DNA of 60,977 nucleotides, counting the filler, from Hausera hauseri (lineage: Eukaryota), in the NCBI GenBank assembly GCA_046269625.1. It is 12 parts of 12 records of this genome, joined end to end, with 100 filler letters (N's around TTAATTAATTAA, not from the genome) between each part and the next. Parts side by side here need not be neighbours in the genome. Positions count along the whole stretch, not along the records: positions 54,586 to 60,977 come from JBJURY010105543.1; 11 more parts are not named here. One strand, given 5' to 3'. Positions 6,781-60,977 of the stretch are shown piece after piece; position 1 is the first letter of the stretch; each line of letters starts with the position of its first letter. The notes beneath the pieces were generated by a model, which had not been told where the DNA came from, searched no databases, and was given only the letters and a program-made list of their open reading frames with translations. A program made the position numbers and the translations under genes.

Positions 6781-6849
6781 CCGTACATAAACCGAGCTGC
6801 AGTCGCAGGACATCTTTCCTAGTGCTTACCGCCCTGGTTTGGCAAATCG

Positions 6850-14568: not shown

Positions 14569-15099
14569 GTATATATGTGTTTTGTAATTCGAGTATTGAT
14601 TTATCGACACTTCTGGAATAAGTAATAAAAATGCTATGCTCCTATTACTACTACTGACAACTGTCCAAGTGTAATTTGTGATTCTTTTAATATAGACATG
14701 AGCAAGTAATCATAATAATGAACAGCCCTGAAGTAATAATATTATCTGTTGTAAACTGCCCCTTCTCTATGAATGTGNNNNNNNNNNNNNNNNNNNNNNN
14801 NNNNNNNNNNNNNNNNNNNNNTTAATTAATTAANNNNNNNNNNNNNNNNNNNNNNNNNNNNNNNNNNNNNNNNNNNNACATCCTTTCATCGGAATCTCGA
14901 TATTTGTGAATCTGTAGAAACTTTCCCAACAATTTCGGTGGAAGATGTTTAATTACATTCCACGACTGTTGAAAATAATCGCATCTTGTCTGACATGGAA
15001 AAGGTTACGAAGAAGATCGTTCGAAGGAATGGAAAAGCCACGAAGCAATTGAAATCAACGGGTTCCCCCGACTTTTGAAATCACAATTGGTTCCCCGGC

Positions 15100-28745: not shown

Positions 28746-29229
28746 AAAAACATACAAAGCCTTGTACAAAATGTTAGTATATGGGAAATTTTAAATACAG
28801 AAGTGGCAATATAATTTAATTTAGACATTTGTGTTGATAATTAAGTCCAACAAACAAATATTTAAAGTAACCAAACAATTTGAATGGCCGAAAATGTTGA
28901 GAAAAGAACCAAACAAGCAGAATAAAAAAATCCAAGTAGGAACAATCGAAATCTAGGATTAAACAAACACCCGAAATCCAGTAGAATCAATTTTACGAAG
29001 ACCATCAATTTCCTGTACAAACTGAAACAGACTACATATAGTGAATGATTTAGACTTATAGTTGCTGAAGGATAACGATAATCACGAAACTGTTTCAGTA
29101 ATCGAAAACAGTATTATTGACAGTCGAACATTGACAGATACTGTTGAAGTAGTTTCGAAGATAGTTGAGATCTTAACGACGTTGATCTATTGACGCAACT
29201 CATTATTGCGATATTTTCTAGAAGGAGAT

Positions 29230-36004: not shown

Positions 36005-37381
36005 TGTTGGTTCAGTGTCCAAAATTTCAAAATGTCTCACAAGTTCAAAAATTCGGATTCTTGTCTCTCCTAAGAATGTTTTTATGATTTTTTAGGTTTT
36101 GTTGATTAAGAAGATTTTCTCGTTGTTGTTTTAATTCTAATTGATGTTGAATTTCTTTGTCAATTGCGTTTCTTGCAAAAAAGAACTCTAATCGTTCTTG
36201 GATTCTCCAAATGTAATAATCGATTCTATCTTTTACACGTAGTAAAAATGCTTTAATGCACATTAATTTTCAAATAGATGTTGTTTAATTTAGTTGTTTG
36301 TTTGAGATCCCTTGTATAGGTTTTAAAACAAACTTTAAGAGGAATGTAATTCTATTACAAGCAGAAATTACTTGCCCTTAATGTTTAATTTTATTTATTT
36401 TTATGTAAAGACGTTGGCCTAATTTGACTTCGGCCGTCTGCGCAGTTAATTTGTGGGTAGAAGTTTTCTTAATTAATAAGAAGGAAATGAATTAACACAG
36501 ATAACTTTTACACAAATAAAAAATAAAAATTACTTTCCTTTGCTTGAGAAAGCAAAAACCAAGAATTGGCAAATGTATTTATTGGTTCCTTTCCGGAAAA
36601 TGTCTGATACAATCAAACAGTGATCTAAGAACAGGTGATCACTGAGGCAACGAATTTAGAAATGAAACGAGAGTATCAACCTCGCTATAAACTTTGGCAA
36701 AATTTTAGAAAATCAAAATCAATGATTTAAACTAAGAAAATTTGTGCGAAGGGTATTCTAAAGTTATTCTTTTTATAGGGTTTTATTTTATGTGGGAATT
36801 GCTTTTTTACTATTTTTAGAAGTTTTCTGGGGTTACGGATTTAACTGTAGGTGTTATCATTTATTTTTAGTAATGTTGCGGGGGCATTGTTTTAGCTAGA
36901 AATCTAAATCTGGTGGTGTTTTTCAATGCGAATTTTTATCGCACAAGTGCACAATAATGTTAAATATTGGCATATTTTACAATTAAATTAAAATTGCAAT
37001 ATACAAATTTTTATCGTATTAGATATTAAATTTGCTCTAGGTTTTATGTCATTATTTTAAAACTATTTCGTCGTTAAAATGTAGCGTTAGATTAAACATA
37101 ACTAGACGCAGTTATAACAGCTTTATTGTTAATTCAAGTACGAGTCGCAAATGATTAAGGTAAACTCATCTTATCTAACTGAGTACCAAAGCATAACTGT
37201 TTTCTACCGATTTATAGAACTGCATTACTAACGTGGTTTTTCAACCGACACAGTTTTTTCATTCAATGATCAATAACTTAATAACAGTAACATAATTTTA
37301 CACAATCATTGATTAATAAACTTAGTGCTATTCTTTCATCATTAAGAAAAATTATTTAAAATTTTAATTCATCCCTTAACA
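36005..37381 (-). repeat. 3' LTR (1377 bp, TGTTA...CAACA)
   Basis: Starts with TG right after the PPT and ends TTTTGGACACTGAACCAACA, identical to the end of the LTR at 54738. Confidence 0.85.
36045..36263 (-). CDS. LTR-encoded small basic protein (72 aa)
   Basis: Homologous to ORF 54779-55000 (QERLEFFFAR.AI.KE.QHQLELKQQRENLL), with several synonymous differences. Confidence 0.65.
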   Translation of the reverse strand: MCIKAFLLRVKDRIDYYIWRIQERLEFFFARNAIDKEIQHQLELKQQRENLLNQQNLKNHKNILRRDKNPNF

Positions 37382-37604
37382 TCTTCCCCCCCCCTTTACA
37401 AAAATTTTTTGTTTTGGTAAAGAAAAAATTGATTAAACTATTTAAACGAGGTTGATCTTCTCGCTGCACAAAATGAAACGTACATAAAAAATATTACAAT
37501 TTGGGTAAAAAATACTACAATGATAAAAATAAAAAAATAAAGGTAAAATACAATAAAGAAAGGAGATAGAGGGAACTAAAATTACAAATGAAGTATATAC
37601 AATG

Positions 37605-40600: not shown

Positions 40601-41089
40601 TTCATTTGTTAAGGTAGGTCTTTTTATCATAACTTTGTCTATTAATTTCGGTTCATTGTCCTTTTCTTGAGTAAAGAAAAAGGTAGGGCCAATTCTTTCT
40701 ACGTATTCCTGTCTTGCTATAGGCAAAATTTTCTGTTTGGATTTCAATAACATTTCAGTTGTTAGGAAATAAAGATCTATAAGGCAAATTTCGTTTAATA
40801 ATGGGGTTGAACAACGTTTGGTTGATAACCAAATTGTGTCATTTATTTCTGGTGATAAGATTAATTGGGTGATTTCTTTGTATTTTGATTTTCCTACGAA
40901 TAATCCGTTTACTAACTCTAGTGAATTCTGCCAGGTAATTTCTACTCGTAATTCTAAATTTCTAACTATAGGGTCTGTTATCATAGTTTGTGCCATGGTT
41001 GATAGTATTAGACCAAAAATCATAATTATAAAGAATAACTGTTCCAGACTACAGGCTGGTTTTAAAACAGGTTGTTTCGATGATCGCAA
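37605..41089 (-). pseudogene. Membrane protein + NLS + inactive DEDDh-like cargo polyprotein, second copy
   Basis: Collinear with 56949-60420. Single-base deletions near 41146 and 38255 break what is one ORF in the other copy. Confidence 0.8.
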
Positions 41090-42541
41090 CGAATATCAAG
41101 ATTCTTTTTTAGCTTTTGGCTCTTCTGGTCCTTTCGTGACTCTTTGGCAGATATACATTCAATTATAGACTTTTTATTAGTGCCCTTTTTAATAAATATG
41201 TTTTCAGGTGTGACCTTTACTACTAAGTAGGGTCCTTTACCGGTGCATGTTAGTTTCAATGATTTTCCTGGTTTCGCTACTGGATAGTGTATCATTACTT
41301 TATCACCTGGTTGAAATTTATGGGGTTTAGCCTTTTTATTATAGTATTCTTGATAATCTTGTTTATATTGTTTGATGGCTTGTTTAGCTTTCTTTCAACA
41401 ATTTGCTAAACTGTTTACAATGCTTTCATGTATATCTTCATCAGACTGACCTTCAGGTATTTCCTTTTCTGGTAATAACTGGATGTCCATTGGGAGTAAT
41501 GGTTTTCTACCATACATTAATTCGAATAGTGTATATCCTGATGAGCTAGTAGGTGTAGTTGCAATTGCAAACTGCACGACTTTTAAGTGGGTATCCCAAT
41601 CCTTTTGAGTCTTTGTCTATTATGGCTGATAGTATACATTGCACTGTATAGTTCAGCCTTTCGACTTTACCATTGCATTGAGGGTGGTATGCTGTTGTTA
41701 GCAACCTATTAGTTTGTCATATGTCTGTTATTTCTTTTAATAATTCGCTTCGGAAGTTTGGTGCTCTGTCTGACAATAGGTAACGTGGAGCACCAAATTG
41801 ACAAACTATTTTGCTAATAAACTTCTTTGCAACTGTGATAGCTAACAAATCCTTTGTTGGTATTAGGATAGCTGGTTAAGTAATCCGTACATAATAATAT
41901 GTACTTATTTCCTTTTAGGGTTGTTGGAAAAGGTCCAGAGAAGTCCATGGCGCAAAATTCCATTGGACTACTCGGCTCTGGTAATGGTTTGAGTTCCGGC
42001 CTATACCGTATACCTGTATTTTTCATTGTTGCACACATTTTGCACTCGTCTACCCAATCTTTAACATCTTGTTCGATTGTGGGCCAGTAATATTTCTGGT
42101 TTATTCCTTTTTTAGTTTTTNNNNNNNNNNNNNNNNNNNNNNNNNNNNNNNNNNNNNNNNNNNNTTAATTAATTAANNNNNNNNNNNNNNNNNNNNNNNN
42201 NNNNNNNNNNNNNNNNNNNNCATTGAAGTTGAAAGGATACAAGGATCTGCACGGCGTTAAATTACCAATATGGAAGTTGGGAAAGTTTACGCTGATTATA
42301 CTTACTTTGGATTTGATTTTAGCTTATGAATAACAGATTTTATTGATTTTGTTTTTCATATTGTTTCTCGACACATTTAGCTAAATATATAAATACATAG
42401 ATAAGTTAAATTATAATAAAACAAAAGGCAAAAACAACGAATAATATACATTATTTACAAAACACAGATCACAATAAATTGTCACAGTAAATGGGTCACT
42501 TTGATCTTTCTTCATCCTTAGCACCGAATTTATTTGTGTTT

Positions 42542-45500
42542 TATTCCAAACACCAATGTCCGTAAGCCCAACTCTTATTCCACCCCACCGACTTACGCTT
42601 ATTATTATTACATGATGAAGCGACTTTGGTACTGGTAACCGTATGCAGCTGGTGCTCAATTGATTGGATGACCGTTTGAGGCACAACAACATTTGATTGT
42701 CCTCCTCCTTCTCCTCCACCGTTTTCTGCCCCGCCGTCACAGGTATGGCGATAATCACCATGGTTTATTTCCGTCTAGACCAACTTAACTCCTTTGGCGC
42801 TCATTATTGGTCCACTGTCTGTTAAAAGGCTATAACATTTCTGCTGTAGAAATAACCATTCCCGATATTGAACCTGACTTTCACTTCCATCCTTAAAGCA
42901 GCCGATTTTGTTTGTGATGACGTTGCTGTACAAAAGATGATTCTCTGGGTACTTAAACGCGTTTAGTAATTCGTCTGCCATCATTTGCCGCAGTAGTTTT
43001 TCGCGATTGACGTTTTTCAGTTCCAAGAAAAAACTACCTGTGTCACGGAAATGATATTGATCTTACATTCGCCGAACATTTGCCGGTATCGTACCAAATA
43101 GCGATACTGCAGCTTATACATTCCCGACTTTCTTAGATCTAATACCACTTATCCTATGTAACTTGGCTGGTCCAGTTTAAAATCTGGCAACCAATCCATC
43201 GGAAATGTGCATTGACCGCCTGAACTGCACCTTGCTGGTGTACGTGACTAACCGCTTTTTGCTATTGCATAGACGTACACTAAGCCGCTATTTTAGATTC
43301 TGTACTGTTTTTCCGTAGCGAAAATTGTTTTTCAGTTTGTATTGGTCTTTTTCAAACTTCGTGCAAGATGCAGCTCGTTTTTCCGAATTCCGACTGATAC
43401 ACGCCTTGAATATCGGAGCCTGTGCAAATCGGACTGCTTGATGTAATTGTGCGGCGCGTACATCGAGATGCATGTAAAATTGCAACAGACGCCAGTGAAC
43501 TATGTAATTTTGTTTACGTTCATAAGTCATAAGCAGCTTTTTCACCTTCGAGCCCTGCAGACATTGCCTAATTGGTGCGACCGGTAATTCATCCAGAAAG
43601 TCACGCAGCTCATCTGGTACCACGAGATTAACTTCCATCAGGTATCCGATTGAACTGTTTTCTGTTGTTTATGCTTTCAACAGATTTTTTACTATGTCGT
43701 CCAGGTTCTCCTTGTCGACTATACACTCGAGTGAACCGTGCGGAAAGGGTTGTGAAAGCGCCCAATAGTACAGGTTATTAATGTCGATATACAACAGTAA
43801 TTTGGTATCATCACTTGTAGCAGCAGCAGCACTAACATGGTGCTTGTTGACAAATGTCATGCTGCCACGAATACAAACATCAAACATTCCGTACAGTTCC
43901 GGGTTTTGCAATAGCTCGATATCCCAACTCATTCCGGATATTGAGTAAAAGTTGAGTGGCTCCAGCCTATATTCTGCCAACGCTTCAGCTCAAAATGTCT
44001 GAAACACATCGACTAATAAGTTAACGTTCAATTTCAGATAGTGAAGCATGTACTCCAACAGGTTTCTTCATCCGAACCTTGCCCAAAACGACTGTGCTTT
44101 GTGATATTCTTCTTCTATGATACCGGTCCATTGCGGTGGTAATTTGTCTCTCATCTGCAGCCTCTCGTACGATATCGCAAAGTCATACGGGAATATGCCT
44201 TTCCTACGCACAATGTGTACAGTGAACTGTGTCAATGTTAGTGGCACATCTGGCAAGGCATTTGCCAGCTTTGAGAAATTGCAGTGAGTCGAGGAAACGT
44301 ACCTGAAACTGTAGTCAGAATTACGGATAGTTCCTTATGTGGTAATCCGTTTATTGTTCATTTCAAAATATGGTGACAATCATAACCCTGAAGTTATAAA
44401 AGATCACCGGCAGGAATGGTAGCACACGCCTTGCCAAATTGCATGAATTACATGCGGCTCTGAGATATCAACAGGTAAAATGATCTTGATCCGTTACGAG
44501 CCGTTCCTTTGCATCAAACGGTAACATTTTGTGGCACAGATAACATTCATCTGTGACTGCAAACATCAGACGTTTATTTTCATCTGTCCACGTCAAGCGT
44601 TTATTACTATTATTACTGTACCAGGGTGCGACTTCCGTTTCTACTATTGTTTCCAACTGATGCAGGAAATCACAGATACAGTTCCAGCCGTGGAAAACGA
44701 AATACTACGGTTGACCAGTGGCTTTTATTAGGACTAGAAACATACCGACAGCAATTGGAAAGTGCTTTTGATAGTATACATTGTGCCATAGTAAAATGAC
44801 TTCAATATCCGCATATATCACGTATGGCGGACTGTCCGTTTTCGACCAGTCACTGAATGTCATCTTCATTTTGACTGGCATGACGTACATTGTTGTTCCC
44901 GAGGAATTTTGTCTGCATAGTGTCACATGTTTCTAACATATTGTTTCCAACATGAATCCATGCAGACATACAGGCCACTATTTACGCAATATATACACTT
45001 TTTGATGAACTGGTCATATTCCATATTCAACAGTCTCTCCAAATTTGTCACGGACAAGTAAAAGAATTTTCACCCTCCTTTTGCTAAAATTGCAACAAAT
45101 TTATTTGTTGTACATTCAGGTTCCGACTATATCTATACGTCATGTCCACATAGGGGTTCTTGTAAATCTCTTTGTCTTCCGGTATTTCTACGACTGTGTT
45201 GTAACAGAACAGAGAAACGTCGGCATGGTTTTTAGTTTCGTAGGCATCCAGCTTTCATCAAAGTCCAATTCGGAAAAATACTGTCGACATTTATTTGGAC
45301 GATATACACTATGTCTATCCACTTGGTCATATTTTAATACGGCCAGAATACTGTAAAGAAAACAGTGTTCATCGTTCTTGTTTTGCGTATTCACCACCGT
45401 CAGAGACTGCTTCAGACCTGCAGGTGTCAGTATGAATGATCGTCCAGACAAGTAAATTATATCAGTCGACTTTGTTATGAAAAAGCCGAGATTGGCAATT

Positions 45501-45700
45501 TTTATAATTCGCAAGCCACTACACTTTTCGGTATAGTTGGCGATTTTTTCGTCCAGGTTTTGGCCTACTACGGCAATAAAATTGTCGGATTACGGTTCGG
45601 CTCGATGTGACAGGAACCATTGTTTCCTATCACATTTCAAATTTTCAAATTCTGCCAGTATATAATACTGAACTTGAGTAGTTATATTACCAGGCTTATG
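42542..45700 (-). pseudogene. Polinton/adintovirus-type pPolB with EndoVII-like insert, degenerate
   Basis: VVNTQNKNDEHCFLYSIL, PYVIYADIE, TDQDHFT, RKGIFPYDF, YIDINNLY, YKLKNNFRYGKTVQN, C-terminal SWAYGHW. Confidence 0.88.
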
Positions 45701-46276
45701 GAATGGCCTCTCAAATTAAAAAAAATTCATTCGTTTGCCACCAACCACCGCTCGCGCATGAAAATTTTTTTAAAAATTTGAAAAACCGACCTATAGCCCT
45801 TGTAATATAACTAATCAAGTCATTAAAAAAATATTCAGTAAAAATGGCTTCAAATAACTCAGATTGTAAATTTTGTGCAACAGGTCGGATTATAATTAAA
45901 TCAGATAATAAGTACATCTGGAGTGAATGTACAATTTGTAAATGTTGTATTAACATTATAAAAATATACAATAAAAAGGGATAATCCGGAACCAATAATT
46001 TCAAATTTAAAGGAAACCAAATTTCAAAATAAACTATTCCCAAATAATTTTCGTTTATTAATGATTGGGAATTTAGAGTGTGGTAAAAATGTGTTATTAA
46101 AGCAAATGCTAACACAACCTGATTTCTTAGATTATGATAATTCATTACTTTTGAATACAACAATATATCAACTAGANNNNNNNNNNNNNNNNNNNNNNNN
46201 NNNNNNNNNNNNNNNNNNNNTTAATTAATTAANNNNNNNNNNNNNNNNNNNNNNNNNNNNNNNNNNNNNNNNNNNN

Positions 46277-49200
46277 AAGATCCAAATGCACGGTTTCAAA
46301 ACGGGAAGTGCAAAGGAAGTGGTAAAGTGGTGGTTTGAGGTGTTTGTTGATTTTATATTGCTGACATGCTACACATCCCTTGACCCAGATCTGTACATCC
46401 ATACGCATAGTTGGCCATACAACGTAGCGTTGCAATAGAAAAAATGTAGCTTTTGAAATCGGATGATGAAGAGAGTAAAAATGAGTGAAAGCTGTTTTTG
46501 TAACGATGGAGCAAGAATGATTTTTTTGTTGTTCCAGTTGGAATTGTCATAGTCAATGCCATCAATGATTTCAACAGATTTAAAAGCTTGGAGAATATCA
46601 GACGATGATTGTTTACTTCTAAAGATTTCAGATAAAAAAATTGGCTGAACTGTAATTGAGTCGACCGACGGCGAAAGAGAGTCTGCTACTAAATTTTCGG
46701 TGCCAAAAATGTACTTAATAGAAATACTAAATGGCGATGGGTATGATATCTGTCGCTCTTGTCTGGGTGATGGCTGTTTTAACGTCATGATATGAAGTAG
46801 AGGTTTGTGGTCGGTTTGGATGGTAAACTGGCGAGATAGAAGCAAATGCTTGAAATGCTTTACCGCTAGAACTACGGCCAGAAGTTCACGATCGAATGTG
46901 GAGCATCTACTTTCCGGTTGCGTGAGCTTTCGGCAATAGAATTCCAATGGCTCGTCAACACCGTTGCCTATTTGGTGTAATATAGCACCAGTGGTTGTGG
47001 TTGAGACATTGGTAGTTAATATCAGTTCTGCGTTTAGTTTTGGAAAAGCCAAAATTTTAACGGTTTTTAGACCTTCACGAAGGCGGTCAAATTGATTTAT
47101 TAAATCGGACGTCCAATAAATTAATTGTATTTTCTTCCCGGATGACAGGTGTGCGAAAGGTGCCGTTAGCTCGAAACAATGTGGCACGTATTTGTGTACG
47201 AAATGCAATGTCCCTAGAAAACTCGTCATATCGGTAGAAGTAGTTGGTATCCTCACATTTTTTAATTGATGTAAGCGATCAGGCTGCGGCGAATGCCCTT
47301 CGGGAGTAATTATGTGGTCTAAGAAGTTGACGCGTTTCTGGAAGAAATTGCATTTGGCGAAATTTATTTGCAGGTTGCATTCTAAGATGCTCACGATGTT
47401 GTTTGATCGAGGTGGAAGCGACTAATATGTCATCTACGTATGGGTGAGCAAAATCAAGACCTGAGAGAACGGTGTCAATGTGGCGCTGAAAGGTCTGAGA
47501 TGCGCTACGTAGGCCGAAAGGCATGAATATGTATTAATAAAGACGAAAGGGTGTGATGACAGCAGTTTTTGGAATGTCATCGAGGGTAACAGGAATTTGA
47601 TGGTAGGCCTTGTGTAGATCAATGGTAGAAGAGGTATTGGTGTTGTTGAGGCTATGAAGAATATCTTTAATGAGTGGTAATGGATAGGCATCTGTAATAG
47701 TTTGATTGTTTAATTGTCGATAGTCGCCATATGGCCTATAGGTACTATCTTTCTTTACCACCACATGAAGAGGAGAAGCCCAAGATGAATTCGATCTCCG
47801 AATGATGCCAAACCTTTCCAGTTCATTAAATTCCTGTTCATAGCTTTACGTCTGCGTGGCGACAAGGGTCTGACCTTTTGTTTCATCGGCCTCTGATGCT
47901 CTGCTACTACGTAATGATAAGTTTTGGATGGCGGCTTGAAGTTGACATCCCTTTTAACTATGCTAAAGCAAGACGTTGTGACGTATGGTTTAAAATTAGA
48001 GTCTAGAGACATGAATGAATGAGGCATGTCATTAGAGAGAACAGCTTCAGTGATTGACAAAAAGCAACTGACATCGATACGGTCGACGCCTAATTTAGAT
48101 TTTTGTTTCAGAATAGATTTATGATTGTCGTCCATAACTGAAATATTACCGACTTTATCGAAAGTTATTTTATAGATGACAAAGCATTCAACATGTTCAC
48201 ATATAAGTGCAATGAATTGCTCGCTAAGTTGTCTACGAGACATATGTTCGAAGTTGCAATTAAGTTTCTGCTTAATAGACAGCTGTATTTGCAATCGACC
48301 AATAGATCATGTGCGGCAAGAAAACTTATCTGGTCAATTCCGTGTTTCCTGCAAGATGCAACGGTTAACCACTGGCAATGAAAAGCGGTGGACAGGAAAT
48401 CATAATTGATGTAGGAACTAAGGACAAGAGAAGGAGCGAAAAGGCAGCTCCTGATTCTATAAGGTATTCGATATGTAAAGTATCTGTACATAACAGTACA
48501 GCTTTCAACAGAAAGAATGCAGAGGTGGTGTTGAAACGGCCATAAGGTTGAGCGATATTGCATGCGCCAGAATGTGCCATAGCATCTGGTGGCATTATTA
48601 GTTTTTTGAAGGTTTTGAAGAAAAGGAAGAAGAGAAAGAAAAGCGAGATTTATCGTTGTAATGTTTGCAACCAGACACGCATGATTTAGCCTGTGACTGG
48701 AACTTATTGTGGTAGACACAAATAGGGTTGTCCACAGCTTACCGTTCGCTGTAGAACCGACAACCCAAAAAGCATTTCCTAGCATCCCTTCGAAATTGCG
48801 TGTGATAGAAGCAAGTCATGCGTCCTCCAGGTGATATTAATCGAGTAGAGTGTCTAGAAATGCTTCTTTCCCTTGAAGATCTGGTTTCACTTTGTCGAGA
48901 TCCATTAAGATTATTTAGTTGGGTAGTAATGGCCGAAATCGACTGCTGTAACTTGTCAAACTGTTACTGCATCATTAGCAATTGTTGAGTAAAAATGTTC
49001 TGTCTGTAGTTGGAACACATGTGGCTGCAGCGCAATAGGGAGAGAACTGTTGACATGATGAATCTCAAAGGATTTGTCAGCCATTATTGCCAGTTTTTCG
49101 ATAGCAGTGGACTCGCGATAACGGTGAGTAAGGCTCTGATTGAGGTGGGCAAAGATGATAAGAAATAACGGCGAATAAAATCCGCGTTATTCGTAGGTGC

Positions 49201-49960
49201 CACTCCTAGAGCGCTAAGCTGCAGAATGGCCGTTTGGAGAAAGTTGGATGGCTTTTGGCTTCCTATCGCGTGGTCGGTAAAATACTTTTGTATTATATTG
49301 TCAATCGAAGGATCCGTAACATGCAGTACAGCTTCACAGAGTGTCTTGTAAGGTGTTGACGATTGTAGCAGCTCGGAGATAGTACTAATCTGCTGCTTGA
49401 CGTTGTCAGGCAGAATAATTAAAAGGCTATTGGCTCGCACAAAAGAATCCGTGATGTTGTTCGATTTTAGCCACTGTTGGTGGAATTAAAGCCATGGTTT
49501 GCTGTAGTTGTTTTTATCAAGGAAAATTCCACACAAGGCAAATTTAACGACGCACGTGATTGTTCAGGGTGTGGCAAACGATACACGTTGCCTGTATTCG
49601 TGGATTTATCATCCGAGAAAGATGGATTTGAGTCCGATCCACCCCGAAGGCGAAAATCAAGCACTAGTTGGATGATGGGACGTTTGCGGAATATGAAAGG
49701 CAAAAGGGAGTTGGAAGGATGTATTATAAGCCATTGACATGTAAAATAGAAATCAGAAGTGTTATATGATGAGGAAAAAGCCTTATATAAGAACTGTGCT
49801 GTCTCGTTCAGTAGAGCTTTTAAAGCTGTAGTGTGTTGGTTGTAGCTAAAGACCAGGAAAGATAATTGTAATGAGGTCATCCCAGGGGAACGATGACATG
49901 CACGGGGGCTTGGGCGCCTCCTCCCCCCGGTTCGAGCGCACAGCCCGGATAGCGGCAACA
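46277..49960 (-). mobile_element. Degenerate Ty3/Gypsy LTR retrotransposon, CsRn1-like, copy C (UBL-gag-PR-RT-RH-IN)
   Basis: UBL ending RLRGG; gag 49084-49600; twin CHCC; gag stop SKN*; PR YLIESGAAFSLL; RT PYGDYRQLN, IDLHKAYHQI, MPFGLRSA, YVDD; RH QTDHKPL; IN CVACQ. Confidence 0.93.
48566..48607 (-). promoter_or_regulatory. -1 ribosomal frameshift signal (A-AAA-AAC plus H-type pseudoknot)
   Basis: Gag ends TCA AAA AAC TAA. Six nt later come stem 1 TGCCA/TGGCA and stem 2 CCAGA/TCTGG. The -1 frame is the protease ORF 48365-48595. Confidence 0.75.
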
Positions 49961-50382
49961 AATGATGATTGAGATAAAGGAATATCCAAAGATGTTAAGC
50001 TTAGAAACCCTTTAAAATGAAAAATGGTTTGAGCCAGGAAGGGTCTGCATATGCCCAAAAAGTGGTCACACTGGTGTGGGCAAATCAGTGACAAAAATCT
50101 CACCACCTGTCTGAATGTTGTTTTACTGAACGCAGTGACAGCTTCTTCATTTCACCAAGCATTGACGATGTGATTTTGATGCAGAATGACTGCGCTGAGA
50201 AATTTTCACCGGGACTGAATGCTGTTAAATTGAAATGGGCACCATGTGACCTGATCTGTCCTTGTGGTGAGAGTATAATAGTNNNNNNNNNNNNNNNNNN
50301 NNNNNNNNNNNNNNNNNNNNNNNNNNTTAATTAATTAANNNNNNNNNNNNNNNNNNNNNNNNNNNNNNNNNNNNNNNNNNNN

Positions 50383-53101
50383 AAACTGAAATCCATCCCG
50401 ACATTTGAACGGCGTAATCCTACTCTGGACATTAACGTTTTCCGGTACAACACAATCGTAGGAATACTAGCAAACGAAGAGATATACAAAAACCCACACG
50501 TGGATATAATTTATCGCAGTCGGAACCCGACTGGACGCTCTGTAAATTTGTTGCTCTTGGAGCAAGCAGATAAATTTCACTACGTGGCAGTAACCAATTT
50601 GGACAGACTGTTGAACACGGATCACTATCAATATGTCCAAAAGCGTATACAATGTAAATGTTGTCTTGTATGTCTCCATGGTTTCAGGTCAAAAACAACA
50701 TGGGAGAAATATGTGGCGCTGTGCGATCAGAATTTAACGGAAACAACCATGTACGTTATGCCACTCAAAAAGGAGCACCTATTCAGTGATTGGTCGAAAA
50801 CGGACAGTCCGGCATATGTGGTATATGCCGATATTGAGGCAATTCTACCAAGGCATAATGTATATGATCAAAAACACGTTCCAATAGCCCTTGGTATATT
50901 GATTGATCCAATAAAAGCGGTCGGTCAGCCACAGTATTACGCCTTTCACGGATGGAACTGTGTACGTGATTTTCTGCAGCGTTTGGAAACAATAATGGAA
51001 ACGGAAATCGAGCCGTATTATCGCAATAATTACACTAAATCCTTTATTTGGACAGATGAATATGAACCGCTGATGTTCGCTGCGACCGATGAATGTTACC
51101 TGTGCAACTAAATATTGCCTTGTCATGCACTAGAACGGCTTGTACCGGACCATGATCATTTCACCGGTCGATATTTGGGAATAGCATGCTATTCGTGAAA
51201 TTTTGCAAGGCGTGTGCGGTTATTCCATCTTTCATAATTTCCAAAGTTATGATTGTCACCATACATTGAAATGGGCCATCAACGGATTTCCGCACTGGGA
51301 ACTGTCCATAATCCAAAAACAACAATGGAGAAGCACTTGTCCCTCTCAGCACGCATAAACCGGTTCCAGGTATGCTTCCTTGACTAATTGCAATTTCTCA
51401 ATGAGTCCCTAGCAAAGCTCATAAATGCCTTGCCGGATGTGCCGATAACCTCAACGCAGTTCCCCACACATATTGCACGCATCAAAGGCATAGACTCATA
51501 TGACTTTGCTGTGTCGTACAAGCGGCTTCAGACAACAGATGAATTGCCGCCACAATGAGCTTGAATCACAGAGGACGAGTACCACATAGCACAGGAAGCG
51601 TGGTTAAAGCTCGGTTGCAGAAACCTGTTGGAGTACATGTTCTAGTACATGAAACTGGACGTATACTTGTTAGCCGATGTGTTTCAGACATTTCGTGCTA
51701 AGGCGTTGGTGGAAGATGGGCTGGAGCCGCTAAACTTTTACTCCATACAGGGGATGAGTTGGACATAAGCACTAATGTCGCTGGACAGGGAAATTGAGCT
51801 TTTGCAAGACCCGGAAATGTACCGACTCTTTGATGTTGGTATTCGTGGCGGCATGACATTTGTCAACAAGCATCACGTAACAAGTGATGACGATGATACA
51901 ACGTCAATGTTCTACATAGATATTAATAACCTGTACAGCTGGGCGCTTTAGCAACCCTTGCCGTACGATTCATTTGAAAGGGTAATGGACAAACAAGAAC
52001 TGTATACACTGCTGGACAGTTTTTCAGCAGCACCAACAAACACGACAGAAAGCAGCTCAGTCAGCTACCTAATGGAAGTCAATCTTTTGGTACCAGATGA
52101 ATTGCATGACGCTCTGGATGAATTACCCGTGGCACCAATTAACCAATGTCCGCCGAGCTCAAAAGTAAAGAAACTGTTCATGACGCATCAACCCAAATCG
52201 AATTAAGTGGTTCATTGGCGTCTACTGCAGTTTATATGCAGCTCGGTGTACGTGTCAAACAGGTGCATCGCGCAATCCACTTCAATCTGACTTTGATATT
52301 CAAGCATACATTGATGGAAATTCTGAGAAACGAGCCGCAGCTTTTACAAAGTTCGAAAAGGACTACTAGAAGTTGAAAAATAATTCGCTGTACGGAAAAG
52401 CAGTAGAGAATCTGAAAAAGCGGCTCAATGTGCGCTTATGTAACAACGAAAAGCGGCTGATTACGTATACCAGCAAGGCTCAGTTCAGGCGGTCAATGCG
52501 CATTACGGACGGATTGGTCGCTATGCTTATAAACAGATAAGAAGTCGTACTGGACCGGCCAAACTATATCGGACAAGTACTATTGGACCTGAGCAAGTTG
52601 TGAATGTACGAGCTCCAGTATTGCGACTTGGTACGTTACCGGCAAATGTTTGGCGACTGTGAAATCAGTATCGTTGCCAGTGACACAAACATCTTTTTTT
52701 GAGTTGAAAAACGTCAATTACGACCAACTGCTCCGACAAATGATGGCAGATAGACTACTGGACAAGTCCAACTTCAAGGATGAAAGTGAAGGTCGGGTTC
52801 AGTATCGGGAATTATATTCCTACGCCCAAAGTGCTACAGACTTGTGACTGACTGTGGACCGAAAATGTGGGCAAAAAGAGTCCAGTTGAGACAGACGGAA
52901 ATCGACCACGGTGATTATCGCCGTATTTATGCAGAAGAAGAACAATCAAAGGCTGTTGTGTTTCAAACGATCTTCCGATCGATTGAGCACCAGCCTATGT
53001 AGGTTAACGAATAAAAATTCGCTTTATCATGGAATGATGATAAGCGTAACTGGGTGGGGCAAAATAAGAGTTAGACGTATGGACATTGCAGGTTGAAATA
53101 A
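50383..53101 (+). pseudogene. Polinton/adintovirus-type pPolB, degenerate; same family as 42542-45700
   Basis: HYVAVTNLDRLL, YVVYADIE, DHDHFTG, GIRGGMTFV, YIDINNLY, KLKNNSLYGKAVENLKKR, C-terminal TYGH. Confidence 0.88.
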
Positions 53102-53389
53102 ACCACGTTCGGTGGTGTCAGATCAGATCAGATCAGATATAGACTATTCAATATTGTGACAATTATTGAAAATTATCATTTGCACATTGTTTTATTTTAA
53201 TGTTAATAACGTACTTTGTTCAGTTTGTTTTGTGTTTTGTTTTCGGTTACTTACTTAACCTATTATTATTAAGTAAGATAAGATAATAGTATAACAATAA
53301 CCTTGCACGAGAAAACAAAATATGTAACACAAATACATTTATTTATTGATAGGAGAAAAACTAAAATCACAAAAACACACAAAGTCAGT

Positions 53390-53960
53390 CAGTTAAATCA
53401 TAGTAAACTTCCCCATTTTTCATATTGTGGATTTGACGCCGCTCCTTTCCTTGAATCCTTTGAGCTTCAGAGTAGGTAGCCTTTAGCTCTTTCCGGTGGG
53501 AAAACTGATGCTGCTGCTGTTTCTCCACCGCCATGTGAACTGACAATTTTCGCCATATTTCCTTTCAGAAAAATAGACTATGTATTTTTGATATCGTGAC
53601 TCAACGCCAAATCACTGTCAACTTTTTTAATTGTGTCGTCCATTGTATACAAATCATTGTTGCGGATCTTTTTCACCAACAGACCATATTTCACAGGTTT
53701 TATTTTGACCGTTTGCGTCAATGGCAATTGAATAGCGTTGCACAGATAATGAACAACCGGGAATTTCTGAGCAAATATTCCCTGTACCGTGGTTTTTTGA
53801 GAGACTGTCATCTGCTAAATTGTTCTCAACCAAAGACATTGTTTAAAAAAGACAAACGTGAACTGAAATTGCATCGGTATTTATATCAAATGTTTGTTTT
53901 CATTGTAAACAATAGATATTTAGTTTGTGAGTATTGTCTCATATCAAAATGATACAAATT
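53390..53960 (-). pseudogene. Unknown gene convergent with pPolB
   Basis: The C-terminus QRIQGKERRQIHNMKNGEVYYDLT matches ERIQGSARR*ITNMEVGKVYADYT at 42222-42310 (+), which lies in the same position relative to the other pPolB copy. Confidence 0.5.
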
Positions 53961-53978
53961 ATCTCCATGTTACTGAAG

Positions 53979-54450
53979 TCATTCGTAATAAATGTGTGCA
54001 ATTTCCATTATAGCACATTTACATTCTGGACATTGGTGGGTTACTTTGGTGATAGTGGTGGTGGAACACATTTGACAAACAACAAGATGGCCGCATATTA
54101 AGAGTACCGTATCAACTTTTCTTTGTTTACATAGTACACACATAAACTGACAGTATCGTACCTTGCCCACTATTTTCTCTTTCAAGTTCTTTGATTCACC
54201 GCGTACCTTTTCAACAGTAGTAAAGTAATCGGTGAATGCACATTTGATTTAATACAATAGTTAGAGTTTCTATAGAACTGCAATCTGTTGCTGTCATTAA
54301 TGATATTGACACTAAATCTTCTTTAAATTCAAAATCGCCTGTTGCACTCACAACCAGCTCATTATCAAGTATTTGCTATCATTGTACCAAGTCTGAAATT
54401 GATAATCTATCAAAATTTTGCAACTGCTTCAGTTGATTAACTATTTCCAT
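53979..54450 (-). pseudogene. C3HC4 RING-finger protein (IAP/Mind-bomb-like RING)
   Basis: CVLCKQRKVDTVLLICGHLVVCQMCS...CPECKCAIMEIAHIY. The upstream part contains stops. Confidence 0.75.
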
Positions 54451-54715
54451 GATGATGATTATGATTTATAGTTTGTGATGATGATNNNNNNNNNNNNNNN
54501 NNNNNNNNNNNNNNNNNNNNNNNNNNNNNTTAATTAATTAANNNNNNNNNNNNNNNNNNNNNNNNNNNNNNNNNNNNNNNNNNNNTCAAGATTTAAGGGT
54601 TCTAGTTCTATTACTAGTTCTTTAAGTTCTAGATTTTGTGTGGAGTCGACAGTCGCACGTTTATTAGGATTTTTTCTAGGTATGTTTGTGTTTTAATTTT
54701 AACTTTAGGAGACAA

Positions 54716-54733
54716 GTCCTGCTAGGGTCGCCA
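54716..54733 (-). other. Primer-binding site, tRNA-Arg-like
   Basis: TGGCGACCCTAGCAGGAC lies 4 nt after the LTR end CAACA and is complementary to a tRNA 3' end (...GUCGCCA). TGGCGACC-type PBS is used by 412/Mdg1-like elements. Confidence 0.8.
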
Positions 54734-54737
54734 GAAA

Positions 54738-56735
54738 TGTTGGTTCAGTGTCCAAAATTTCTAATTCTATTTAAGATATTAGGATTTCGGATTCTTGTCT
54801 CTTTTAAAAGAAAAAAGTTTTCGCTTTTTAACTTTTTGTTGAATAAGAAGATTTTCTCTTTGTTGTTTTAATTCTAATTGATGCTGATTCTCTTTATTAA
54901 TTGCGTGTCTTGCGAAAAAGAACTCTAAACGTTCCTGAAAAACCCAAAGGTAAAATTCAAATCTGATTTTTAAACGTCTCCAAAGAGTTTTAATGCACAT
55001 TAATTGTTTAGGCAATTTGTTTTTGCAGATCTCTTGATCTTTTTAAGCTGAATCAAATATGGATTCTTTGGAGAAGGTTATTTAAAACAAAAGCAGAAAT
55101 TATTTTCCCTTATTGTTTATATTTTAATTATTTTTATGTGATTCGCGTAGCCTACTGTGCTTTCGGCTGCGACCGCTATTAATTATTGGGCTGAAGTTTA
55201 TTTATTTATAACGAAGAAAATAAATAAACACAATTGGAATTTAACCAACAAAAATAAAAATTATTTACGTGTCTTCTGAAAAGCCAAAAGTTTTCGAGAA
55301 TAGTATATTTTCTCAACGAATAAACTGAGAGTACAAATTTGAATGATAACCAACTATGTTGATTATCGGAACCCAAGAGAGAGTCAGTTTCAAATATCGG
55401 AATTTAACCGGTAAAGGTTCAATATTTTATTGAAAACCCTTTAGATAAGAGAATTATTCTCTGTGACTTTTTCTGTTCTGTTCTGTTATTTTTAAGTTGC
55501 ATATTTATACCTTTGTTGAGTGTTGTGGGTGTTCTTAGCTGAGGGTCTCATTTTTCTAGGGGTGTTTGTTATCGAAGTTACTTATTTTAGTAACTTTTTG
55601 TGGATTGATTTATCTGGGGGTGTGGTTTTGATTAAATCCGAGGGTGTTTGTACCTAATTTTAATTAAGTTTGTGGGTGGTTTGTATATTAATTAATAACT
55701 TTTAATAATACGAATTTTTATCGTAACTTATTTCACTATTTCACAACATATTAACTTGCTAAATTATAAAGTCACATTCAACTAAAATTTAATAAATTCT
55801 TTTGTTTTATTCTAATTTTTAAATTGCTCTTAAAAAATGTTCAATTGTAAAACTAATTTGTCACAGAAGATAATCGATTAACTTCAGAACATAACTCTTT
55901 AAAATCACAAAATCAATATCTCAACTTAATTAAATTAGTATTTTTTGTTTTTGATTACGAATTGTTATCGTAATTTATTTTTTAATTTATACATCCGCTG
56001 TATATTTATACTTACTCAATGGTCTTAAATAAAAATCAAAAATTCTAATTTCAATGCAACTGCATGATTGTTATTTCAATGTGACTATGATTGTTAATTA
56101 TGTTTTGAAGTTAAACTACAGGTATGGTTTCATGCATTTAGCAAATTTCAAAATTATTTACAAATGCTCGTAGTAAAAAACTCATTTGTGTATTATAATT
56201 AAACTACTGGATGAGTGCAATAATCTATCTGCTTACAATATGTTTTTAACTACATCATGTTTTAACTCATCGTTTTTCTGTTACTGTAACATCTTTTCTT
56301 AACATCATTTCTGTTCATGTTTTAACTCATTGTTTTATTTTACTTTAACATTCTATTCTGTTACCTTAACACTTGTATTAACCATAACATATGCACAGTT
56401 ATAATGAAAAATTCTGTAATTAAAATTGACTGTACTTCAGACTTAAAACTAAGTAGAGCTAAACGGAAAACAATAAGGTTAGTTCACTGAGGCCATTTGT
56501 CTGATATGCATGCACATGGTAAGTGAATTCTGTTTAAGTGGCCTATTTCATTGATTTACACTTGTTTGTTTCACATGTTTTGGTGTTCATCTAAATTATT
56601 CAAACGATTGCATTGACAACACTTATGTGTACAAATAACAAATTGTTAATAGAATAATTGCAGCAAAACTTGCACAGTGCTGATCGTGACTAACAAAAAC
56701 ATTCATAACATTTAACTAACTCGTTAACCTCAACA
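54738..56735 (-). repeat. LTR (1998 bp, TGTTG...CAACA) flanked by PPT and PBS
   Basis: PPT AAGGGGGGGGGGGGAAGA at 56736-56753; 5-bp terminal inverted repeat; PBS downstream. Confidence 0.88.
54779..55000 (-). CDS. LTR-encoded small basic protein (73 aa from MCIK)
   Basis: Conserved with 36045-36263. The stop lies about 40 nt before the LTR end in both copies. Confidence 0.65.
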   Translation of the reverse strand: MCIKTLWRRLKIRFEFYLWVFQERLEFFFARHAINKENQHQLELKQQRENLLIQQKVKKRKLFSFKRDKNPKS

Positions 56736-56948
56736 TCTTCCCCCCCCCCCCTTAGAAGAAAATTTTCTTTTATAAAAATGAAAATTTTAATTAAATAATT
56801 ATGTGAAACTGGTTCTCTCTGGTTACAAAACAAAAAGAATAAAAATTATACAATTTTTTATGATAACATAAATTAGAAAATGTCACAATAAGTACAGATG
56901 TATCATAGTATGAATTGAAGCAAGAGTGTCATGAGTCAAAACAAAAAG

Positions 56949-59900
56949 TTATAATTGAATGAAAAAGTCTTTATGGATGTCCATTTCTTCCTCAGTTTGG
57001 ATCACCGTCGCGATCTGATAAAGATTTTCCAACGTATATTCGTCTTTTTTGGCGAATAGTAACATTTTAATGTTTGATTTTCCGGAGTTACGCAATTTGA
57101 TTGTTTTTCCTCGTGGATTTGGTATTGGTACCATATCCATTTGTACTGGTATTGGCTGATTAGTCAATATAGGACTGTGCTGTACTTCTTTTAAAATATC
57201 GAAATATATCCCGATCATCGCCAGATGTAAGGTGTTATAAATAGAATGTTTGTAGACTAGTCCCACTACTTTTCCGAATAATTGTGTTGGGACTATTTGT
57301 TTCCATTGATTAAGAGTCGTTTTTGGCTCTTTTGTGAATTTAACATTAATAACATGATTCATATGTCCGTAAACTAGAATGGACAATTGAATAAAAACGA
57401 TTTTTTCCTTTTGATTAAGGCTGTCCATAATTGCATTGGTTTGCAATTTTAATTTTTTAATTGGAGATTCAACTTTTCGTTCTGTGATTTCATTTTCTGC
57501 TAATTTTTCATATTTATAATTCATATGATACTTTTGCGGTATTGTTTCGAAGCTTCCATAGTCAATTAAATTGTGGTAAGGTGGAATCCAACTGTGTTCC
57601 CAATGCTCATTAGAACATGAATCGGTAATTTTTGTGTAGATATCCATTACTACTTGGATTATGGATTCAGCTGTTTTTGGGAAGTCTGTTTGAAATCCGT
57701 ATACTCTTGGTAACTGCGTCAAATTCAATTTCATTTTCCCTTCTTCGAACCTCTTTTTTGTATTGGGAATGGAGAGTAGATCGATAATTCCGAATAAGAA
57801 GGATTGTGGTATTCTTAAGGATTTGAGAATAGTGCTTGTATTAGCACTAATGACGATGTACCCATACAGATATTTAACGAGCTCCTTTCTTACTAGTTCT
57901 TCATCTTCTGCCTCTTCTATGATGGATAATGATAGTCCATGAATATGCTCGTTAGTGTTAGAGATTTTTCGCCTTGGATTTAGAAATGCGTGATAAATGA
58001 GTAATTTCGCTTCGTCTGCGACCATCACTTCTACTGGTAACGGATCTCCATTCGGAGCATATGCTAGAGAAACTGATAGATATCTGTAATTGCATGCTGT
58101 GGAGAGTTGGAAATTTGATATATCTTCTGGTGGTATTTGATGGAATAATGGTTCTTGAAATCCTAAGTTTTCATCCAATGTTTGACATATTTCAACGCCT
58201 AATACTACTGGGGTTAGTAGTATCCTGAAATAGAGAGGCGTTTTAAACGCAATGTTATTGATTTTCATTGTAGATTTAGAATCTAAAACTGATTGTTTTG
58301 GGTTGATACTTTCATAGGTATCCGTATGTGCTCGTAATTGAATTCGTCCTTTTGCTACGTGCAAGAGTATTTTTTCAAAAGGTTCCTGTAGTTTAAGGAA
58401 TTCTGTTAATTTGACATTGTAACATGGATTGTCAATTTTCATTATACGAAAGGACCGTTCATTAATGGTCGAGGTCTTTAAACTATTGTCTAGATATTTG
58501 CTTTGTAAGAATAGTACATCAGTTGAATCTTCTGTGAGTTCGATAAGCCTGTTGTAAAATTTGCTTGGATACATGTTTTTTCCGGCATCATATATGAGGA
58601 TAGACCTGTTATATAATTCGAACCATGGTTTGGTTTTTAATTGATGTTTTTTATTATCTGAGATATTTTCTTGGAGCTGTGATTGTAATTTGATCTGTTT
58701 GTGCTCTGGCAGATCATTAATATCCATTCCCTTTTTCCGAACTTCAACTATAGATTGAATTCGTGGTGTAGTTACCACTGCTGCTGGTGAATTTTGGGTT
58801 ATTTGGTTTGCTAATATCCCTCTTGACAGTCCAAGCCCTTGAGTAGGATTTTGAAATGTAAAGGAATTATAGCATGGTGGTATAACCTTTCTTTTAGGGT
58901 TATACACCACAGTTTCGGTTGATGCATCGGAGTTTGAATCATTGGCATCTAGATCGATGTCTTGTATTTCCATATCGTCACGTACTGGTTTGTTTGAGAA
59001 ACTCATCGTGCTGAAAGAAGAATGATTACTATGGTGGGTCTTATTTAATGGCCCATCTTTAGGGTAGGTGGTTACCCTACAATAATTTTTAATTGGTGTT
59101 ATTGTATTTCTAGTGTATCGTGATTTTATTGGTTGAAACTTAGCATTGCTTTTTAATGTGTGTATTAGTTCATGATATGTGTGTCTTTTTAGGTATTTGA
59201 AATTTGAATGGTATCCTTTAGGATTTTTAAATTTTTTATTTTCCTCGACGTCGACTATCCACTCCACACTCGTCAAACATATTAAATGCGTTGTTAATAA
59301 AAGGGTTTTATTCATAATAGCTTGTTTTTGGGAAAATCTTTTTATTTCTATTATTACGAAAGGTGCAGATATGGATAGTAGAAGGAGTATTATTATAATG
59401 GAAGGGATTATGATCCTCAATGTATCTGTTTGTATACTAGATTTGGTTGCTAGTTGTAACTGCGTATAAACTGGAACTTCTTCATGTATCAAGTATTTTT
59501 CCGTTTTGGTCTTAGTTCGGATTGTTTGATGTCGCGTTTTGGCATAATTTTGTGTGAAGACAATCAAGTATTCTTCGTCAGGTTGGAGGTCGCTACATCT
59601 AGTCATCCTTTCGTGCTTTTTTATAGCGGCGTATATTATGTGATATTTTCCTACACAAGTTATTGAAATAGGATCTTCTAATAATTGCAAGACCTTAAAC
59701 TCAATATATGAGTCTGTTGCTATCATAGTGACATCAGGTATTTTATTTAGGCTAACTGTAGTAATTTGTTTATTACTAAAGGTCGATAATGTGGTGATAG
59801 TTGATATTATTACTTGTTCTATTTTAAAGAATTGCAGTAATGGCATATGGATATGGAAATTCAGGGCTTTTTCGCCGGACTTATGTTTAAATAATCTAGG

Positions 59901-60977
59901 AAAATAATATGTTATTTGCAAATCAACTTCGTTCGTTAAGGTAGGCCTTTTTACCATGACTTTGTCTATCAGTTTTGGTTCTTTATCCTTTTCCTGAGTA
60001 AAGAAAAAGGTAGGGCCTATTCTTTCCACATATACCTGTCTCGCTATAGGCAGGATTTTCTGCTTTGGTTTCAATAGCATTTTGGTTGTTAGAAAGTAAA
60101 GGTCTATAAGACAGATTTCATTTAATAATGGAATTGAACAACGTTTAGTTGATAACCAAATTGCATCGTTAATTTCTGGTGATAGGATCAGTTGGGTTAT
60201 TTCTTTATATTTTGATTCTCCTAAAAATAATCCGTTTACTGAGTCGGCTGAATTTTGCCATGTAATTTTCACTCGTAGTTCTAAGTTGGTGATTATGGGG
60301 TCTGTTACCAAGGTTTGTGCCGTAGTCGACAGTATTAAACCAAAAATTATAATTATAAGAAATAATTGTTCAAGACTACAGGCTGGTTTTAAAACGGGTT
60401 GCTTAGATGATCGCAACGAGTATCGAGGTTCTTCTTTAACTTTTGGTTCTTTTGGTCCTTTTGTGACTCTTTGGGCTGATATACATTCAATTCTGGTCTT
60501 TTTACCAGTGCCCTTTTCGATGAATATATTTTCAGGTGTAACTTTTACTACTAGGTAAGGTCCTTTACCTGTACGAGTTAGCTTCAGTGATTTTCCTGGT
60601 TTTGCTACTGGGTAATGTATCATTACCTTATCTCCTGGTTGGAAATTATGAGGTTTAGCTTTTTTATTATAATATTCTTGGTAATCTTGTTTGTATTGTT
60701 TGATGGCTTGCTTAGCTTTCTTCCAGCAATTTGCTAGGCTGTTTACAACGCTTTCGTGTATTTCTTCATCAGACTGGTTTCCAGATATTTCTTTTTCTGG
60801 TAATAACTGGATATCCATTGGGAGTAATGGTTTTCTTCCATACATTAGTTCAAATGGCGTATATCCTGATGAACTGGTAGGTGTGGTTGCAATTGCAAAC
60901 TGTACCACTTTTAAGTGAATATCCCAATCCTTTTGAGTTTTGTCTATCATGGCTGATAATATACATTGCACTGTATA
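56949..60977 (-). CDS. Ty3/Gypsy Pol C-terminus (integrase, GPY/F) fused in frame to a membrane protein and an NLS + inactive DEDDh-like module; 5' truncated
   Basis: Uninterrupted 1340+ aa: QKDWD, TPFELMYGR, GKGPY; signal-like LFLIIIIFGLILSTTAQ (about 60316-60366); TM about 59351-59415; second hydrophobic segment about 59255-59305; PKRKV; REX4/ISG20-like pattern at 57625-58088. Confidence 0.9.
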   Translation of the reverse strand, partial: YTVQCILSAMIDKTQKDWDIHLKVVQFAIATTPTSSSGYTPFELMYGRKPLLPMDIQLLPEKEISGNQSDEEIHESVVNSLANCWKKAKQAIKQYKQDYQEYYNKKAKPHNFQPGDKVMIHYPVAKPGKSLKLTRTGKGPYLVVKVTPENIFIEKGTGKKTRIECISAQRVTKGPKEPKVKEEPRYSLRSSKQPVLKPACSLEQLFLIIIIFGLILSTTAQTLVTDPIITNLELRVKITWQNSADSVNGLFLGESKYKEITQLILSPEINDAIWLSTKRCSIPLLNEICLIDLYFLTTKMLLKPKQKILPIARQVYVERIGPTFFFTQEKDKEPKLIDKVMVKRPTLTNEVDLQITYYFPRLFKHKSGEKALNFHIHMPLLQFFKIEQVIISTITTLSTFSNKQITTVSLNKIPDVTMIATDSYIEFKVLQLLEDPISITCVGKYHIIYAAIKKHERMTRCSDLQPDEEYLIVFTQNYAKTRHQTIRTKTKTEKYLIHEEVPVYTQLQLATKSSIQTDTLRIIIPSIIIILLLLSISAPFVIIEIKRFSQKQAIMNKTLLLTTHLICLTSVEWIVDVEENKKFKNPKGYHSNFKYLKRHTYHELIHTLKSNAKFQPIKSRYTRNTITPIKNYCRVTTYPKDGPLNKTHHSNHSSFSTMSFSNKPVRDDMEIQDIDLDANDSNSDASTETVVYNPKRKVIPPCYNSFTFQNPTQGLGLSRGILANQITQNSPAAVVTTPRIQSIVEVRKKGMDINDLPEHKQIKLQSQLQENISDNKKHQLKTKPWFELYNRSILIYDAGKNMYPSKFYNRLIELTEDSTDVLFLQSKYLDNSLKTSTINERSFRIMKIDNPCYNVKLTEFLKLQEPFEKILLHVAKGRIQLRAHTDTYESINPKQSVLDSKSTMKINNIAFKTPLYFRILLTPVVLGVEICQTLDENLGFQEPLFHQIPPEDISNFQLSTACNYRYLSVSLAYAPNGDPLPVEVMVADEAKLLIYHAFLNPRRKISNTNEHIHGLSLSIIEEAEDEELVRKELVKYLYGYIVISANTSTILKSLRIPQSFLFGIIDLLSIPNTKKRFEEGKMKLNLTQLPRVYGFQTDFPKTAESIIQVVMDIYTKITDSCSNEHWEHSWIPPYHNLIDYGSFETIPQKYHMNYKYEKLAENEITERKVESPIKKLKLQTNAIMDSLNQKEKIVFIQLSILVYGHMNHVINVKFTKEPKTTLNQWKQIVPTQLFGKVVGLVYKHSIYNTLHLAMIGIYFDILKEVQHSPILTNQPIPVQMDMVPIPNPRGKTIKLRNSGKSNIKMLLFAKKDEYTLENLYQIATVIQTEEEMDIHKDFFIQL

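Follow-up and report, generated by a model that had tools for sequence, protein, structure and literature searches.

Long terminal repeats (LTRs) are routinely annotated as non-coding, and a published screen for small open reading frames (ORFs) filtered for transmembrane (TM) segments and myristoylation, so that an ORF of the kind considered here would be missed. A high-copy gypsy-type element of Hausera hauseri raises the question of whether a short frame lying inside an LTR encodes a protein, which bears on whether non-retroviral LTR elements carry accessory genes as complex retroviruses do. An example of new biology coming from small ORFs is MDG1 sORF2, which has been linked to cell-to-cell transmission. 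Among the papers listed by searches of open-access text, none describes a protein encoded by the R/U5 region of a gypsy-type LTR.

Two related elements with a frame inside the LTR

The window, that is the whole stretch of 60,977 nucleotides analysed, consists of 12 separate contigs with N-TTAATTAATTAA-N spacers between them, and adjoining contigs have no physical linkage. A gypsy-type element is represented by its 3' part in each of two contigs, S12 (54586-60977) and S8 (35268-42120). Both elements lie on the minus strand, so that this strand of the window is their sense strand; it also carries both ORFs (Table 1).

Table 1 Features of the two elements, in window coordinates (element orientation in parentheses).
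Feature	Position	Strand	Basis
LTR of element S12, 1998 bp, TG...CA	54738..56735 (56735-54738)	-	sequence
LTR of element S8, 1377 bp, TG...CA	36005..37381 (37381-36005)	-	sequence
Polypurine tract, S12	56736..56753	-	sequence
PBS-like sequence, S12, 4-nt gap after LTR end	54716..54733 (54733-54716)	-	sequence
TATA-like box, S12, 772 nt from LTR end	55502..55509	-	sequence
ATG-free leader, TATA box to ORF start, S12	55001..55499	-	sequence
TATA-like box (36777, 773 nt from LTR end) and ATG-free leader, S8	36264..36777	-	sequence
73-aa ORF in S12 LTR, ATG at 55000, stop ends 54779	54779..55000	-	sequence
72-aa ORF in S8 LTR	36045..36263 (36263-36045)	-	sequence
Small hairpin, then poly(A)-signal-like ATTAAA	55123..55176	-	fold prediction
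Predicted terminal hairpin over last codons and stop, S12	54747..54795	-	fold z -3.3
ORF of at least 1342 aa, S12: integrase end, two hydrophobic segments, cupin-like and ISG20-like exonuclease-fold domain	56949..60977	-
Matching long ORF, S8	37605-41394	-

A polypurine tract lies directly before the LTR in both elements. The S12 LTR is followed by a PBS-like sequence, which is presumably of the tRNA-Arg type, and the S8 LTR by unrelated, non-element flank. The TG...CA LTR with a polypurine tract before and a PBS after it, together with an integrase at the end of pol, is the arrangement of Ty3/gypsy elements; the integrase was recognised by tblastn (E 3e-11 and 2e-18) against P0004, an RT-RH-IN-chromo Pol, the matches falling on its integrase end. 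No RT is present on either contig, and the element is therefore not assigned to a gypsy clade. The two contigs match (blastn) at 83% across the end of the integrase and the first part of its extension, and at 65% further down. The LTR sizes given in the first-pass annotation are exact, and its statement that the 5' parts cannot be aligned by eye agrees with blastn, in which the alignment of the two LTRs is confined to their final ~530 nt, at 70%. Within 54586-56753 (minus strand), the one S12 LTR has a polypurine tract on one side and a PBS on the other, as in tandem elements sharing an LTR or in a collapsed multi-copy assembly. Short imperfect direct repeats, possibly enhancer repeats, are found in its U3 part (56255-56345, minus strand).

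Upstream of the LTR, the integrase continues in frame into ~1150 more residues. In S12 the hydrophobic, TM-like segments of this long ORF are at 60362-60306 and 59399-59343. A further domain has an ISG20/ISG20L2-like fold (Foldseek E 3.5e-6, for a model with pLDDT 55) and lacks the ExoI acidic residues, which are kept in the relative P0003. The dN/dS of the long ORF between S12 and S8 is mostly 0.03-0.2. Elsewhere in the window, decayed gypsy pol fragments (RT, RNase H and integrase) occur in four other segments (4495-9203, 14878-18950, 23168-30489 and 46277-50282) and have no DNA-level relation to the S12 and S8 elements. A 589-codon open stretch at 11524-13293 (plus strand) encodes Ig-like domains of the Hydin/CFAP65 type (Pfam E 5e-36), as fits an animal genome. 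Two contigs (42221-46176 and 50383-54485) share a 2.3-kb repeat that is ~70% alike and inverted between them; the ORF at 50335-51111 has no Pfam match.

Within the LTR, a sense ORF of 72-73 aa had been described as ending about 40 nt before the LTR end, and this is borne out by the 41 nt (S12) and 40 nt (S8) that follow the stop. The two ORFs are identical at 46 of 73 alignment columns, and the window contains no further copy. By length alone the ORF is only mildly unusual: a frame of 72 codons or more turns up within the final 770 nt of an LTR in 3-4% of shuffles (P 0.03-0.04). The evidence is the codon pattern and the ATG-free leader.

An ATG-free leader between a TATA-like box and the frame

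The TATA-like box is TATAAA at matching places in both LTRs, and the ORF is ~510 nt downstream of it. From 30 nt after the box to the start of the ORF there is no ATG in 479 nt (S12) or 484 nt (S8), where dinucleotide shuffles give expectations of 5.2 and 5.4 (P 0.0008 and 0.001); in the upstream parts of the LTRs the density is 23-24 ATG per kb. ATG is the sole one of the 64 triplets missing from either leader. The complete ATG-free gaps, 502 nt in S12 and 597 nt in S8, rank 3 and 1 of the 2398 in the window, and both end at the ORF's own ATG. Since a gapped alignment of the 5' halves of the leaders gives just 42-62% likeness, the S12 and S8 results can be taken as largely independent. The gap of rank 4 is antisense (481 nt, 55356-55837) and near the S12 leader. 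A leader of gag is expected to be without ATG anyway.

Over the final 765 nt of the LTR the ORF's own ATG is the only one. Beyond it there is none in the remaining 412 nt of the S12 contig, which ends short of the gag start, or in the 256 nt that remain of the S8 LTR. This ATG has T at both -3 and +4, a weak start context by the vertebrate rule. The first-pass annotation had proposed that, in the 5' LTR, no ORF of the genomic RNA would come before this one, which precedes the PBS. The matching TATA positions and the ATG-free leaders of both LTRs are consistent with that proposal, given a start site deduced from the box, and the ORF ATG is likely to be the first AUG of the LTR transcript.

S12 and S8 also agree in how far other motifs lie from the LTR end: a donor-like GTAA at 531 and 529 nt (55268 and 36533), a poly(A)-signal-like hexamer at 391 and 395 nt (55128, ATTAAA, and 36399, AATAAA) and an acceptor-like AG at 329 nt in both (55066 and 36333), all on the minus strand. 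If used, the hexamer would place the ORF in U5. A second AATAAA lies inside the S12 ORF at 54898 and has no counterpart in S8. The hairpin predicted beside the hexamer is not significant, the leader folding no better than shuffles (z -0.7 and -1.0), and Rfam has no match in the window.

The order of a donor before a poly(A)-like signal is reminiscent of the foamy-virus layout. In an alternative reading the source of the protein is not the genomic RNA; its message would be a distinct LTR transcript, short or spliced, coming from a 5' LTR, from 3' LTR read-through or from a solo LTR. A donor-to-acceptor splice would remove the poly(A)-like signal, 5' polyadenylation in foamy viruses is suppressed by a donor that precedes the signal (PMC3694450) and MDG1 elements produce a short sORF1 transcript (in those of PMC11952523). 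Such motifs are, however, common in AT-rich DNA, and no joint in the contigs of public runs, which are of DNA type only, skips 55268-55066, which leaves this origin improbable. The ORF as a spliced first exon of gag was rejected, the S12 ORF having no GTAA or GT[AG]AG donor.

Constraint on the codons of the frame

The test for selection compares two full copies, S12 and S8 (Nei-Gojobori, kappa 1-3). Between them dN/dS is 0.25-0.44 over codons 1-61, with constraint strongest in codons 22-55 (0.09-0.16 in this core, which was chosen by eye) and weak in codons 2-21 (0.4-0.7). The dS of the ORF, 0.35-0.7, is near that of the closest part of the long ORF (0.6-1.0) and indicates that the DNA itself is not frozen. 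The six synonymous differences listed for the core in the first-pass annotation are exact (codons 22, 24, 29, 37, 39 and 48). Its remark that substitutions elsewhere are often conservative does not describe them well: they are mixed, and several of the 12 differing codons in 2-21 are radical (I/D, V/R, R/L, W/L).

Because the core was hand-picked, codons 2-61 were tested whole, with no choice of window: the 38 differences were reassigned at random among sites bearing the same base. The observed 40 of 60 identical codons exceed the 33.9 expected (P 0.005-0.006), the BLOSUM score is higher than in the permutations (P 0.0003-0.0008) and the absence of a stop has P 0.03-0.04. Under a local null with moves of at most 10 nt, the BLOSUM result persists (P 0.001-0.003) and that for identity is only P 0.03-0.07. 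The indels between the two ORFs keep the frame (net -3). The ORF frame is the sole one free of stops, each of the other five having stops at 5-8 codon positions, and coding in antisense or in a shifted frame was rejected on this count. The purifying selection that had been suggested for the LTR ORF protein is thus supported, by the dN/dS, the permutation and the single open frame, beyond the hand-picked core.

The C-terminal RDKNP, common to the two peptides and identical at the DNA level, is a separate case. In S12 the last codons and the stop are in a predicted hairpin, of which S8 has the same outer stem (z -0.8), and the RDKN codons are predicted to pair with the sequence after the PBS (54690-54800, minus strand; with the terminal hairpin, z -2.2 and -3.3). 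As predicted pairing explains the identity, RDKNP was rejected as evidence for the protein and is probably kept by the RNA hairpin. The RNA of the ORF core is no better folded than shuffles (z +1.2 and -0.9).

Copies in public sequencing runs provide a second view. The ORF stretch is present in five runs (X1-X5), in DNA-type contigs, none of which is recorded as RNA; 933, 184, 14 and 19 contigs of X1 to X4 align to S12. X1 may be the source sample. In X1 the summed depth, which is not equal to copy number, is ~10,000 over the ORF vs ~150 at 55282-55467. Among the 24 of 144 rows listed, likeness to S12 breaks at 55003 (X1-X3) or 55005 (X4), in all four runs 3-5 nt before the ATG. One contig of X4 aligns without gaps over 54785-55005 and differs there at 17 sites. 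On S12, 10 of the variants are in the ORF (among the 40 of 169 rows listed) and 6 of these are synonymous third-position changes; three indels are in the ORF (among the 12 of 37 rows listed), all in the tail, where +5 and +1 at equal depth are likely from one contig, net +6. The third, a +1 insertion at 54801 in one contig, has a depth of 284/18,071 (1.6%).

On S8, at a share of at least 3%, the runs X1, X2, X3 and X5 yield 27 variant rows (14 in third, 8 in first and 5 in second position), nine of them synonymous; none makes a stop or affects the ATG. No indel reaches this share, and one contig has a net -51 joint. Removal of two rows beyond codon 61 and of 12 equal to the S12 letter leaves 13 independent alleles not common to S12, of which 9 are third-position (P 0.017) and 6 synonymous against 3.5 expected (P 0.09, not significant). 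In the well-covered codons 21-56, eight of ten are third-position (P 0.006) and six of ten synonymous (P 0.026). These P values are optimistic, as variants are linked within subfamilies. Codons 41-58 have no listed variant on S8, synonymous ones included, which fits nucleotide-level constraint or a gap in contig coverage.

It might be argued that the frame has no role of its own: cis signals would conserve the 3' portion of the LTR, the 5' portion would turn over, and the frame would have stayed open by chance. Divergence of the 5' halves is known from LTR families (PMC10787394), RDKNP is identical in DNA and predicted to pair, codons 41-58 are without variants and an ATG-poor leader would serve gag translation in any case. 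What this account leaves unexplained is the third-position bias, the restriction of stop-free reading to one frame, the indels that preserve it (net -3 for S12 against S8, and the +5/+1 pair of equal depth) and the retention of an ATG where every other ATG is absent; it is accordingly given little probability. The LTR frame is very probably truly coding.

The K/R-rich character claimed for the protein is evident in the 19 (S12) and 15 (S8) K+R among 73 and 72 aa; a basic NLS-like pattern is seen in the S12 peptide only. There is no TM segment (maximum Kyte-Doolittle 19-mer 0.51 in S12 and 0.37 in S8) and no N-myristoylation motif MGxxxS/T, the peptide starting MCIK, and a fusogen of the FAST/sORF2 type was rejected on both grounds. 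AlphaFold2, from a two-row alignment, gives one helix over residues 2-69 (pLDDT 89, pTM 0.48), which says little. A leucine zipper was rejected (best a/d hydrophobic share 0.42-0.46, no clear heptad).

Pfam gives no match to the peptide, and neither does a search of 5.8 billion proteins, restricted to lengths of 40-128 aa. Among viral contigs 2 of 14 stretches have 20-residue matches (E 3e-4), which were taken as chance, and none of 281 metagenome contigs matches; the best ESM Atlas score is 0.76, of lead level only, and the best E among PDB sequences is 0.14. These searches yield no homologue or family from which a function could be read. The lack of homologues in the protein search speaks against a captured piece of a host gene, whose codon pattern would be inherited and not maintained by the element, as do the fixed place of the ORF across relatives in four runs and the expectation that differences acquired after capture would be neutral and not biased to synonymous sites. 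Capture is very unlikely.

A different possibility is that the frame is translated and acts mainly in cis, as an upstream ORF (uORF) that sets the amount of Gag or sorts RNAs between translation and packaging. Its ATG, alone in the final 765 nt of the LTR, and its stop, which in both copies falls inside the predicted hairpin beside the PBS, would suit such a role, and leader ORFs of RSV attenuate gag initiation (PMC2657110, in the passages on the leader). Against this, amino-acid constraint peaks 18-50 codons ahead of the stop, whereas the tail varies. A length of 72 codons is also long for a reinitiation uORF. Control in cis, under which ribosomes arriving at the stop would in addition open this PBS-adjacent hairpin, is rather unlikely.

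A possible accessory protein and its comparison with known systems

The feature is real and is probably a coding and translated accessory ORF. On balance, the reading preferred here is that the selected frame of 72-73 codons, as the first AUG of the 5' LTR RNA, gives a small, soluble, basic accessory protein used in the life cycle of the element. A predicted promoter in the 5' LTR would drive a transcript starting ~30 nt after the TATA box, and ribosomes would scan the AUG-free leader of ~480 nt to the AUG of the ORF. With a weak context and no further ATG for at least 412 nt, part of them may pass on to gag by leaky scanning, as in vpu/env. The conserved helix face (codons 22-55) may engage a protein partner, and nucleic-acid binding or nuclear import may fall to the variable basic tail, while the last codons would double as the RNA hairpin beside the PBS. 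The peptide could act in trans, in the manner of sORF1, on the RNA, the particle or the transcription of the element; the role of trans-regulator proposed for it is plausible.

It is also conceivable, if doubtful, that the LTR is a self-contained mini-gene with promoter, AUG-free leader and conserved ORF, so that any copy, solo LTRs included, would make a protein that regulates or protects the family in trans at a dose that follows LTR number. Every LTR copy would then produce a retrotransposon protein without known relatives. A constrained orphan peptide located downstream of a promoter within the LTR would be copied to both ends of the element and kept in solo LTRs.

LTR-encoded proteins are known from complex retroviruses: MMTV sag and lentiviral nef are U3 ORFs that precede the promoter, and it is 3' LTR sequence from which they are read. 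The present ORF shares with them a protein-coding frame inside the LTR, but it is much shorter, near the PBS and, in both copies, downstream of the TATA box and hence of the putative promoter, so that the parallel drawn with sag and nef in the first-pass annotation fits poorly.

Based on the passages of PMC2657110 that concern them, the uORFs of the RSV leader and HIV-1 vpu/env present an upstream AUG before a main gene, with a weak context that lets ribosomes leak. The LTR ORF resembles them in both respects; unlike the RSV uORFs, which are short and regulatory, it has 72-73 codons under amino-acid-level constraint. With respect to the long ORF, gypsy elements of bdelloid rotifers encode an exonuclease (DEDDy) ORF3 (PMC5408684) and the planarian Burro elements encode polyproteins (PMC6431247). 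The present element is similar in having extra TM and DEDD-fold domains beyond pol, and differs in that its domain is ISG20-like, without the ExoI acidic residues, and in frame with the integrase. The passages concerned in these two accounts describe no ORF inside the LTR.

The closest comparison is with the MDG1 group of Drosophila (412, mdg1, Stalker, Blood and Tabor), in which sORF1 and sORF2 are located upstream of gag and translated (PMC11952523). In the passages of that paper and of PMC13486581 that describe the products, sORF1 is nuclear, ~110 aa long and predicted to form a helix-turn-helix, and sORF2 is a FAST-like TM protein of ~70 aa; in those of 10.1101/2020.09.24.311225, the sORFs belong to the internal region. 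As far as these passages go, the LTR ORF is likewise a small sense ORF (~70-110 aa) before gag, in a gypsy-type element and under purifying selection, and with 73 and 72 aa it falls within the 63-107 aa range of sORF2, with which it also shares a polybasic patch. Unlike sORF2 it has no central TM segment or myristoylation motif, and unlike sORF1 it is predicted, by AlphaFold2 from two rows, to form a single helix and no helix-turn-helix. The earlier comparison with 412/mdg1 elements therefore stands for the position on the RNA and not for the protein features or the location: the MDG1 sORFs lie in the internal leader, whereas the ORF described here lies wholly within the LTR, ending 40-41 nt before its end.
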